A stretch of DNA of 64,000 nt from a virus (IMGVR_UViG_3300036984_000039:32001-96000); one strand, 5' to 3'. Shown: positions 33,479 through 36,738, counted from the first letter of the stretch. Notes: generated by a model from the letters alone, not told the origin. Numbers and translations are program-made.

Positions 33479-34670
33479 TGTATAGATTCCGCGATACAAT
33501 ATCGCCATGAGATTAACGTACAAGTATCGAATCTTTCCGAGTAAATCACAGCGAACTTCCCTTAAGAAGGTACTTGGTGCATGTCGCTTCGTGTACAACA
33601 AGGCATTGGAAACTAGAAAAAATGCATGGGAAGAACGCCAAGAAGCTGTCAGTAAATACGATACGATTAATCTCATCCCTCAGTGGAAAGCTGAAAATGA
33701 ATGGCTTAAAGACGGTCACGCACAGGCTATGCAAGAAGCCTTGACGCGTCTTGATTTGGCTTTCCGCTCGTTCTTTCGCCGCGTGAAAGCTGGAGAAAAA
33801 CCAGGATATCCACGATTCAGATCGGCTGATCGTTACGATTCGTTTACGTATCCTCAAGAAAGGGGCAACTGGCGATTTCTCGATAATGGCCGCGTACGTC
33901 TGTCTAAGATTGGTGATGTCAAAATCAAGTTGCACCGCCCTCTTAGCGGGGAGTGCAAGACCCTGACCATTCAACGCGATGCTATTGGCAACTGGTACGC
34001 TTGCTTCTCTTGCATCGTTGAAGCCAATCCACTGATACCTACGGATAAGATAGTTGGAATCGACGTTGGTTTGACTCACTTTGCAACCCTGAGCGATGGA
34101 AGCCAAATTGATAATCCCCGCTTCTTTCGCAAGAGTGAAGATGCACTTGTAGCCGTACAGCGCCACTTGTCGAAAGAGACAAAGGGCACACCGGGATTTC
34201 ATCATTACAAGCGTGTGCTCAATCATATTCATCAGCGAATTGCCAATCGGCGCAAGAACTTTGCACACCAAGAATCGCGTAAGCTGATCGACAAGTATCA
34301 ACTAATCGCCTTTGAGGATTTGGACATCAACGGTATGATGGACGGCAACCACCGCGGTATGAACAAGAGTATTTGTGACGTTGCGTGGAATCAATTTGTG
34401 CAATTCACGACGAGCAAGGCGGAAGGTGCTGGCCGTCGCGTGGTACTTGTTGATCCGCGTAACACAACAAAACTCTGTTCCCGTTGCGGTGAAATTGTCC
34501 CCAAGAAAATGTCCGTTCGTGTTCATGTCTGCCCTAAGTGCGATATCGTGCTTGATCGGGATCATAATGCTGCTTTGAACATTCTTGCCCGCGGATTAGC
34601 TGGCATCAGCACCGGTTCGCCGGTTGTAGCTGTAGAAGCCCCGGCTTTAGCCGTGGGAGTAATCACTGAC
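33477..34670 (+). mobile_element. Non-autonomous IS200/IS605 element carrying tnpB, inserted at the terL start
   Basis: Right-end hairpin GAAGCCCCGGCTTTAGCCGTGGGAGTAATCAC. TGACA occurs on both sides, so the equivalent boundary is 33473-34666. Confidence 0.8.
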
Positions 34671-34709
34671 ACGGCCATGTTTTCAGTATATGCTAAGGCA
34701 ACACGTTAG
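33507..34709 (+). CDS. tnpB: RNA-guided endonuclease TnpB (intact, leaderless)
   Basis: TYKYRIFP, GIDVG, FEDL, CSRC..CPKC, DRDHNAA. ATG lies 6 nt after TTGACA-N17-TACAAT. Confidence 0.95.
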   Translation: MRLTYKYRIFPSKSQRTSLKKVLGACRFVYNKALETRKNAWEERQEAVSKYDTINLIPQWKAENEWLKDGHAQAMQEALTRLDLAFRSFFRRVKAGEKPGYPRFRSADRYDSFTYPQERGNWRFLDNGRVRLSKIGDVKIKLHRPLSGECKTLTIQRDAIGNWYACFSCIVEANPLIPTDKIVGIDVGLTHFATLSDGSQIDNPRFFRKSEDALVAVQRHLSKETKGTPGFHHYKRVLNHIHQRIANRRKNFAHQESRKLIDKYQLIAFEDLDINGMMDGNHRGMNKSICDVAWNQFVQFTTSKAEGAGRRVVLVDPRNTTKLCSRCGEIVPKKMSVRVHVCPKCDIVLDRDHNAALNILARGLAGISTGSPVVAVEAPALAVGVITDTAMFSVYAKATR

Positions 34710-34724
34710 TCAACAGGATGGCAC

Positions 34725-35240
34725 ATGGCAAAGATCAAAGACTTCAAGACTGCTTCGGTGAATAGCAACCGACATACACAAAGAGGCTTAAGCGCACTAG
34801 ACAAGTCCATCCGCACCGATGGCTGGATCGGCGCGATGACGACCGCTGCCGATGGCGAGATGATCGCTGGTAGTGCGCGCCTGGAGCGCATAGCCGATGT
34901 GTTCGGCGTCGAGATTGAACCACTGGTTATCGAAACTACCGGACAACAGCCGATAGTCATTGTTCGCAAAGACATTCCCAATGCTGCCGATCCACGCGCG
35001 CAGCGCCTAGCCGTGGCCGACAATCGCATCGCACAACTCGATCTCAGTTATGATGTTGAAGTGCTCGCTGGTCTGAGCGCCGAAATTCTGGAAGGCTTGT
35101 TTGAACCGCAAGAGTTATCCGACCTGGGCCAGCAGTGGGCGGAGCAGCAGCCGCCTGACTTCAAGGAGTATGACGAGTCCGCCGCCGATGACGTGGAGAT
35201 GTGCACGTGCCCGAAGTGCGGTCACAGCTTTCCAAAATGA
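34725..35240 (+). CDS. ParB/Srx-like N-terminal domain protein
   Basis: NSNRHT..LDKSI..IAGSAR..LAVADNRI and a C-terminal CPKCG, typical of phage ParB-like genes preceding methyltransferases. Confidence 0.75.
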   Translation: MAKIKDFKTASVNSNRHTQRGLSALDKSIRTDGWIGAMTTAADGEMIAGSARLERIADVFGVEIEPLVIETTGQQPIVIVRKDIPNAADPRAQRLAVADNRIAQLDLSYDVEVLAGLSAEILEGLFEPQELSDLGQQWAEQQPPDFKEYDESAADDVEMCTCPKCGHSFPK

Positions 35241-36325
35241 TGGATGATTGGTTTCCGAAGGCGGAGAGTAGGCCGATTTCCCTTGAAGTAGCTTGGCGAG
35301 AAGTTGGAGAACCCGAACAGGAGTGCGATATATCGAGATTCGCAATCGGAGATGAGTGGCACAAACTTCGACAGGGGCAAAAAAGTACAAGATTTCTTAG
35401 TCTAGTAAAACCGCTACTATCTATGCCGAGTCCCACCATTACAAAGGGTACAGGCATGACACTATCTCTCGCTTCCGTTGTCCATCCTACAGAGTGCCGA
35501 AAATACTCAAGGCAGGAAGCGAAAAGAGCGACATCAATTCCGGATACATTTATCTTTACAGGATCATGGGGCGAGTGCTTAGAGCGTATCGGTAACAGTG
35601 TCCCGCCCTTGTTTATGCGCAGTATCGCGAGAAACATAAAGAGCATGATGGAAACCGGCCAACCGCTTCGCCAAGCAGGAGGATTGCAGAGGATAGCCGA
35701 TTATCCGGCATACCTGGCAGCGGCCTGGGCCGAGCACCTTGCGCCACGGCAAGCGGATGCGCCAACCGTCATCAGCACATTTGCCGGTGGAGGTGGAAGC
35801 AGCTTGGGCTACTCGATGGCTGGCTTCCGGGAACTACTGGCCGTCGAATGGGACGACAACGCAGTAGCGACGTTCAAACTCAACTTTCCAGATGTACCAG
35901 TCTATCACGGCGACATCTGCAAGTTGACGGTTGACGAGTGCCTGAAGCTGGCAGGCTTGACCGGGCCACGCCAGCTTGACGTACTAGATTCGTCGCCGCC
36001 GTGCCAGGGCTTCAGCACGGCAGGCAAGCGGGATTTTGGCGATGACCGCAATCAACTCTTTCGCGAGTTCGTGCGCCTGCTGCGAGGACTACAACCGAAG
36101 GTCTTCGTCATGGAGAACGTGTCCGGTATGGTCAAGGGCAAGATGAAGCTGATCTTTGCCGACATCCTGCGGGAACTGAAAGCGAGCGGCTATGTCGTCT
36201 CTGCTCGCTTGCTAAATGCGATGTGGTTCGGCGTGCCGCAGAGTCGGGAGCGCATGATCTTCATTGGCGTGCGAGAAGACTTGGGATCGCGCCGAGTCAC
36301 CCGAAGGCAGAGAGTAGACTGGTAA
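35237..36325 (+). CDS. C5 cytosine DNA methyltransferase in circularly permuted order (TRD-IX-X-I..VIII)
   Basis: RIGNSVPP precedes FAGGGG, SPPCQGFS, ENV and QSRER. Confidence 0.85.
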   Translation: MMDDWFPKAESRPISLEVAWREVGEPEQECDISRFAIGDEWHKLRQGQKSTRFLSLVKPLLSMPSPTITKGTGMTLSLASVVHPTECRKYSRQEAKRATSIPDTFIFTGSWGECLERIGNSVPPLFMRSIARNIKSMMETGQPLRQAGGLQRIADYPAYLAAAWAEHLAPRQADAPTVISTFAGGGGSSLGYSMAGFRELLAVEWDDNAVATFKLNFPDVPVYHGDICKLTVDECLKLAGLTGPRQLDVLDSSPPCQGFSTAGKRDFGDDRNQLFREFVRLLRGLQPKVFVMENVSGMVKGKMKLIFADILRELKASGYVVSARLLNAMWFGVPQSRERMIFIGVREDLGSRRVTRRQRVDW

Positions 36326-36738
36326 AATTACGCGATGCCTTACCTAGTGCGGATGTGTCCGGTTTGCCAAAGTTTGACGATGTATATGCTCGATTGTGGC
36401 CGCGAGTGCCGGTGCCAACCGGTGCGCGGCTGACTTCAGCCGCGCACCGCGTCATCGGGAAAGGATTCAATAGTTGCGTGAAACCCAATCCGAATATGCC
36501 ATGCTGTACTTTGCCGAAAACGCAAACTGGCAGAGGATTTGCGACCATTGCGCATTTTTCAGAACAACGCGCCTTGTCAATCGGTGAAGCAAAACGGATA
36601 GGATCATTTCCAGATGTGTTCCAAACCGTAGGGGATTATTCAACGCAATGGATGCGCATCGGCAACAGCGTGCCGCCGCTTCTCATGCGAAGTATCGCGC
36701 GGCACATTCGCGCAGAAATCCTAAGTAAAGCGCCATAA
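36283..36738 (+). pseudogene. Second TRD plus motif IX/X module, out of frame with the catalytic core by one base
   Basis: GIAPSHPKAESR..RALSIGEAKRIGSFPD..RIGNSVPP. TTG-GG(G)-ATC would join the frames. Confidence 0.8.

Follow-up and report, generated by a model that had tools for sequence, protein, structure and literature searches.

We asked which enzyme is encoded by a C5 DNA methyltransferase gene in a 64,000-nt stretch of viral DNA (IMGVR_UViG_3300036984_000039:32001-96000; the whole stretch analysed is called the window below). In this gene, one catalytic core with motifs I-VIII lies between two modules, each composed of a TRD and motifs IX and X, and the second module is one base out of frame with the rest. 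An earlier note on this DNA had proposed that the enzyme was caught in circular permutation and could switch its specificity between the two TRDs. The locus thus raises the questions of whether the order of its parts is real, whether it is peculiar to this phage and whether the frameshift is a lesion or a device of regulation.

Order of the gene parts

ORF1 starts with an ATG, with a GTG at 35201 as an alternative start, and its product of 362 aa ends in a 14-codon out-of-frame tail (Table 1). Within this single frame, TRD1-IX-X is followed by a linker of about 40 residues and then by motifs I-VIII. ORF2, in the -1 frame (36223-36738), overlaps ORF1 by 103 nt. The Pfam profile PF00145 matched ORF1 in two stretches (E 4e-58), of which the core covers profile positions 2-167, and matched ORF2 over profile positions 262-322, corresponding to motifs IX-X (E 1e-08). 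Between PF00145 and direct reading, all the hallmarks of a C5 DNA methyltransferase were found: motif I, motif IV with the catalytic Cys, and motifs VI, VIII, IX and X. The description in the earlier note, in which TRD1-IX-X and motifs I-VIII share a frame and TRD2-IX-X follows one base out, is therefore borne out by the ORFs, the Pfam matches and the motifs. Equally, its statement that the present frame yields a permuted enzyme using TRD1 agrees with the positions of the N-terminal motif X (RIGNSVPPLFMRSIAR, at 35588) and motif I (35780) in one frame. The second TRD-IX-X is absent from ORF1 solely through the one-base frameshift, and an intact copy follows in the -1 frame.

The gene as called in the public record begins at 35645 (P0011, 226 aa, 100% identical) and omits the N-terminal module. 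On the upstream side, the TGA stop of a ParB-like gene and the ATG of the methyltransferase overlap as ATGA, and the same ParB-like zinc-ribbon gene lies directly upstream in three phages (the window, L003 and L035). The window also carries, between its terminase and ParB-like genes, an intact IS605-family TnpB of 400 aa (33507-34709, + strand), with Pfam matches to HTH_OrfB_IS605, OrfB_IS605 and the Cas12f1-like TNB.

Table 1. Features of the methyltransferase locus, in window coordinates
Feature	Position	Strand	Basis or detail
Upstream ParB-like gene	34725..35240	+	phrog_620, E 1.8e-12; CxxC...CPKCGH zinc-ribbon-like tail
ORF1, permuted C5-MTase as deposited	35237..36325	+	ORF calls, Pfam, homologs, AF2
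N-terminal module TRD1-IX-X	35237..35644	+	IX about 35500-35570; X 35585-35640
Left bracket, copies 1 / 2	35255..35271 / 36301-36317	+	17 nt, 16/17 identical (94%); encodes PKAESR
Right bracket, copies 1 / 2	35584..35637 / 36654-36707	+	54 nt, 76% identity; motif X, RIGNSVPPL.MRSIAR
Linker and leader helix MMETGQ...DYPAYLAAAWAEHLAPR	35645..35779	+	AF2 helix, residues 156-168
Catalytic core	35780..36283	+	Pfam, motif reading, structure match to 8yf3
Motif I FAGGGG	35780	+	direct reading
Motif IV PPCQGFS	35996-36016 (motif position 35999)	+	direct reading
Motif VI ENV	36113-36121	+	direct reading
Motif VIII QSRER	36239	+	direct reading
Break point TTGGGATC	36281..36288	+	one G short of TTG GGG ATC in many relatives
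C-terminal module TRD2-IX-X, -1 frame	36286..36738	+	motif X 36658-36700; stop 36736-36738

The similar sequences said to bracket both modules are real (Table 1), and the interiors of the modules do differ: aligned over 84 aa that take in the last part of the TRD and motifs IX and X, the two share 48% identity, and identity within the TRD interiors is 13%. Because both brackets encode conserved peptides, their nucleotide similarity follows from protein conservation; the codon classes of the left bracket are conserved family-wide. The N-terminus of ORF1, FPKAESRPI, corresponds to the HPKAESRP that follows motif VIII. Recombination between the brackets had been proposed as a way of bringing in TRD2. 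We rejected it as a switch on topology: the copies of each bracket are direct repeats, one on either side of the core, and a crossover between them would remove the core and not exchange one module for the other.

To the extent that a structure prediction can tell, ORF1 holds together by itself. An AF2 model built on an alignment of 57 family members reached a mean pLDDT of 90.9 and a pTM of 0.91, and indicates that ORF1 alone would form one compact enzyme body. Compared with solved structures by sequence-ordered aligners, the model was closest to 8yf3, over the core only (Z 18.8, 184 aligned residues), as is expected of solved C5-MTases when the chain compared with them is permuted. The longer form was modelled through the full-length relative P0001 (pLDDT 83, pTM 0.69). 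Here residues 167-513, which comprise the core and the C-terminal module, adopted the canonical fold (8yf3, Z 37.5, 320 residues, 2.4 A), and the N-terminal module was folded separately, outside the canonical unit, with a pLDDT of 80-94. Taken together, the two models suggest that either module can complete the fold in silico.

A two-module family and the exchange of its modules

Comparison of homolog architectures placed the gene in a family. About 47 of the 120 best database relatives are single ORFs of roughly 470-545 aa with the order module-core-module (X-I-IV-VIII-X); 59 have the standard order I-IV-VIII-X, and a few have the N-terminal module only and are truly permuted. Two-module proteins of about 470-545 aa match 96% of ORF1 at 54-81% identity (60-81% for proteins of about 500 aa) and then run into a second TRD-IX-X. 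The homology of the window locus to this family extends along its whole length, and its C-terminal module follows the family consensus; only in lacking a single ORF, through the frameshift at 36281-36288, does the window differ. Rather than a transient form caught in this phage, as the earlier note had it, the arrangement is that of a conserved single-ORF family of about 500 aa from which the window copy departs.

A 101-residue junction that stretches from motif X, across the linker, to motif I is diagnostic, as it occurs in permuted or two-module forms only. Searched against 1.84 billion representatives at 50% identity, this junction was matched end to end in about 35-40 of the best 150 proteins, most of them 437-547 aa long. 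Intact two-module ORFs were found on nine viral contigs. With one genome per prokaryotic species, motif X preceded motif I in 3 of the 80 best loci, all three on MAG contigs, which together with the viral contigs points to an architecture that is mainly a feature of uncultured phages. A blastn search of the locus against GenBank phage records returned no match, and our literature searches found no publication describing a two-module C5-MTase. Module-core-module C5-MTases apparently constitute a widespread, undescribed family.

Motif X is invariant in both modules across 43 two-module proteins. The layout of P0124 (813 aa; sister P0135, 547 aa), with two TRD-IX units ahead of the core and three behind it, shows that the family can carry more than two recognition modules. 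Another member, P0143 (498 aa), which has the N-terminal module only, carries an intein-like insert of about 150 residues in motif IV, which separates PPC from QGFS at the catalytic cysteine (PPCF...VHNCQGFS).

Between pairs of two-module genes, cores are 57-88% identical and both modules 23-44%. Judged by such sequence comparisons, the modules are mobile and mosaic and the core is not. The TRD1 type of the window occupies the N-terminal position in P0001-P0003 and is also found as the sole TRD, in C-terminal position, of standard enzymes, P0004 (69% identity) among them; likewise, the standard enzymes P0056 (90% in the TRD) and P0097 carry the TRD2 type. Across 44 complete two-module proteins, the N- and C-terminal TRDs of one protein are never alike (median 13%, maximum 29% identity), and TRD pairs taken across different proteins reach 71%. 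The GC content of the N-terminal module (35275-35650) is 44-49%, compared with 55-63% for the core and 59% for the genome, which suggests a recent import of this cassette. Among the two-module loci considered as dN/dS candidates, there was no pair with modules at least 60% identical.

We built a FastTree phylogeny on the cores of 161 proteins of the family (92 standard, 60 two-module and 9 with the N-terminal module only); it is a quick tree with many open forks. On it, the presence of the N-terminal module changes at least 37 times, and the well-supported branches alone force 8-10 changes. These recurrent changes are likely to result from recombination and not from repeated invention. Standard, two-module and permuted-only forms are intermingled, even within the tight clade that holds the window. 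This supported clade of five members includes, besides the window, P0042 and P0108, which are standard, P0013, which has two modules, and P0092, which has the N-terminal module only; the core of P0042 is 92% identical to that of the window. In P0092, the C-terminal module has been deleted and REDLGIAP is fused to the tail of a neighbouring ParB-N6-methyltransferase gene, a tail that equals the C-terminal peptide PKYCAVILERM of the corresponding protein in L035. That gene, at L035:4616-6019, fuses a ParB N-terminal domain to an N6/N4 DNA methyltransferase and lies directly downstream of the C5 gene.

These comparisons bear on whether the deposited gene encodes an enzyme at all. If the N-terminal module were a relic or a regulatory appendage, the frameshift would kill the enzyme and the gene would be a fresh pseudogene. 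In favour of such a reading, AF2 puts the C-terminal and not the N-terminal module of the full-length relative in the canonical position, and broken copies of the family are common in metagenome assemblies. Furthermore, one of 71 conserved columns deviates in the window core: DGSPPCQ has become DSSPPCQ, with a Ser at 35987-35989 (VLDSSPPCQ), just before the catalytic PPCQ, where at least 93% of 160 family cores have Gly. In M.HhaI, another small residue, Ala, occupies the equivalent position. Against this, the N-terminal module has motifs IX and X that vary little or not at all in the family, standard enzymes exist whose only TRD is of the TRD1 type, and the predicted fold of ORF1 alone is compact. 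In addition, forms with the N-terminal module only, which stop right after motif VIII, are retained as intact ORFs in diverged lineages (L073, L075, L109, P0229 and P0237), and their persistence argues that this module can serve an enzyme alone. We therefore regard a fresh pseudogene as unlikely.

Nature of the frameshift

Across the break, the family consensus is G[VI]R[ED]DLGI.PSHPKAES. The DNA of relatives often reads GAC TTG GGG ATC at this point and that of the window reads GAC TTG GG- ATC, so one G of the G4 is missing from the window. With one base added at TTGGGATC, the sequence becomes REDLGIAPSHPKAES, which is the family consensus; the earlier note was thus correct that a single G gain would join TRD2 to the enzyme. 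The module that is cut off aligns at 85% identity and without gaps to its counterpart in the intact standard enzyme P0056, with only two differing residues in the TRD interior, and the two cores are 89% identical. Given that the cut-off module has not decayed, the lesion is of very recent date or else arose in the assembly.

An error of assembly or sequencing, in which case the phage would encode an intact two-module protein of about 500 aa, has a considerable chance of being the whole story, although we put that chance short of even. The undecayed C-terminal module fits this reading, as do the position of the break in a short G run where relatives have G4 and the exact family consensus that one added base restores. 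Moreover, L035, a related phage of 103 kb, is frameshifted in a run of nine Cs, a typical site of homopolymer error. However, the 107-kb genome has long intact ORFs elsewhere, up to 1275 aa, which argues that indel errors are rare in this assembly, and short-read assemblies do not usually go wrong at a run of three or four bases. In a genome-wide frameshift screen, overlapping stop-to-stop ORFs were found everywhere in this genome of 59% GC, so that the case for a low indel rate rests with the intact long ORFs. The DNA pattern across the break, with either G3 or G4, had no match in viral_contigs or metagenome_contigs, and these collections thus yielded no near-identical copy for comparison.

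Two other broken copies help to place the lesion. In L035, the C9 run (L035:3372-3380), which holds one extra C, falls within motif X of the N-terminal module and shifts this module out of frame; with C8 it would be fused. The run could be a contingency tract or a homopolymer error. In L003, an in-frame TAG stands in the C-terminal module of an otherwise intact two-module gene at L003:2807-2809, and the remainder of the module continues in frame behind it. As homopolymer error cannot explain a TAG, real module loss does occur in the family, which again speaks against a mere error in the window. With the window, L035 and L003 each broken differently, loss of one module is, on these sequences, a recurrent and real event. 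Long homopolymers also occur in relatives, with G8 runs in L004 and L093 and a C7 run in L073; runs of at least eight are present in 3 of 15 genes where about one is expected, an enrichment that is not convincing.

The earlier note had proposed a switch. In this reading, -1 frameshifting or slippage in the G run would produce either a TRD1-only enzyme or one with both TRD1 and TRD2. The frame relation would allow it, since TRD2 is joined by a -1 shift or by one more G; the C-terminal module has stayed intact, and a C9 tract gates the N-terminal module in L035. The expected signals are nevertheless missing. Direct reading of 36260-36325 found no X XXY YYZ heptamer, and the downstream RNA (36286-36400, 115 nt) folds no better than shuffled sequence, being in fact less stable (z +1.09), so that this interval offers neither a slippery heptamer nor a stimulatory RNA structure. 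There is no contingency tract (about seven or more) at the frameshift point: the G3 at 36283-36285 is far below the length known to slip, and the longest run in the gene is A6. The relatives are in frame at this site, none of them sharing the frameshift, and the three broken copies are broken in three different places and in three different ways. Without a slippery site, stimulatory RNA, a long repeat tract or a frameshift shared among relatives, neither a programmed switch nor the switchable specificity drawn from it is supported, and we consider regulation of this kind very improbable indeed.

We also weighed a split enzyme of the M.AquI kind, in which a separately translated TRD2-IX-X would complement the core in trans and compete with the attached TRD1. 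When C5-MTases are bisected at this inter-domain point, in nature or by design, their parts complement each other efficiently (PMC5944983), and in the M.AquI type the break lies there and the reading frames overlap, as they do here by 103 nt. Unlike that type, ORF2 has no credible start codon or ribosome-binding site: the sole start ahead of the module is the GTG at 36223, which on direct reading lacks an upstream Shine-Dalgarno. In addition, the short homologs that databases hold for the module stem from truncated gene calls, whose start lies inside the core and not at the TRD boundary. Complementation in trans is accordingly, in our estimate, very improbable.

The explanation that we think likely is that the gene is a phage orphan C5-MTase of the two-module family, in which a one-G lesion leaves a permuted TRD1 enzyme and not a regulated switch. 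According to this proposal, the one core (I-VIII) would be flanked by two different TRD-IX-X modules, the N-terminal one in the permuted position and the C-terminal one in the usual position, with all three parts in one ORF of about 500 aa in most family members. In the window, one G of an ancestral G4 run would have been lost right after motif VIII, either very recently or in assembly. The deposited copy would then give the 362-aa enzyme TRD1-IX-X-I..VIII and leave the intact TRD2 module untranslated, and this enzyme should methylate the TRD1 target only.

Implications and comparison with known systems

The full-length form probably covers two target sequences. Both it and the permuted form are presumably active in methylation, and they may serve an anti-restriction role, as orphan methyltransferases that protect phage DNA from host restriction. 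More tentatively, and with the balance of our judgement on the other side, full-length members could be bispecific by means of two chain topologies, the core pairing in a permuted topology with the N-terminal module or in a canonical one with the C-terminal module, each for a different target. One polypeptide would in that case be two enzymes, and losing either module would leave a standard or a permuted one; permutation by duplication would, moreover, have left a living record in the family. Provided that both modules work, these enzymes would represent a second phage route to a multispecific anti-restriction methyltransferase and would offer swappable specificity cassettes for engineering. 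What the window itself adds is more modest: a single family member, from a sediment phage, with a one-base lesion that may be real or an error of assembly.

In textbooks, the circular permutation of DNA methyltransferases exemplifies the model of permutation by duplication, and the literature examined offered no description of natural intermediates for C5 enzymes. The link that the earlier note drew to this model holds, in that close relatives are standard, two-module and permuted-only. The family supplies such intermediates, with cores about 90% identical among the three forms and with module loss by deletion, nonsense mutation and frameshift, and it looks like a natural set of stages of permutation by duplication. 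Peisajovich, Rockah and Tawfik reportedly made laboratory intermediates of this process in 2006 from M.HaeIII, engineered from an exact tandem duplicate (work cited in PMC5944983). Like the two-module forms, those intermediates are partly duplicated, truncated at one end and placed between the standard and the permuted order; unlike them, the two modules described here are natural, have different TRDs and belong to a conserved family. The model itself is summarised in PMC3320104.

By sequence as well as by structure, the closest solved relative is PDB 8yf3, a DNA cytosine C5-carboxymethyltransferase (36-41% identity, E 6e-53). It has the standard order and a single module, and the likeness carries no information on the cofactor of the window enzyme.

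A functional parallel is offered by the multispecific C5-MTases of Bacillus phages (M.SPRI, M.Phi3TI, M.Rho11sI and M.H2I), which carry more than one TRD on one core and presumably overcome several host restriction systems together. Like the window family, they are phage-encoded and combine one core with several TRDs. Their TRDs, however, stand side by side between motifs VIII and IX and use a common IX-X, whereas in the window each TRD has its own IX-X and one of them precedes motif I.

In motif order, the deposited enzyme is closest to the natural permuted C5-MTases of Type H, of which the earlier note had cited M.BssHII as an example. Type H comprises M.BssHII, M.Alw26I, M2.Eco31I, M.Esp3I, M2.BsaI and 22 further REBASE entries, in which TRD-IX-X precedes motifs I-VIII and the N-terminus falls in the variable region after motif VIII (PMC5944983). 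ORF1 as deposited has exactly the same order, with IX-X ahead of motif I in one polypeptide and its N-terminus in the variable region. All Type H enzymes end soon after motif VIII and none contains a second TRD-IX-X (PMC5944983, S5 dataset). They belong to other sequence subfamilies and mostly to restriction-modification systems; the permuted form of the window, by contrast, stands among standard and two-module sisters with about 90% core identity.
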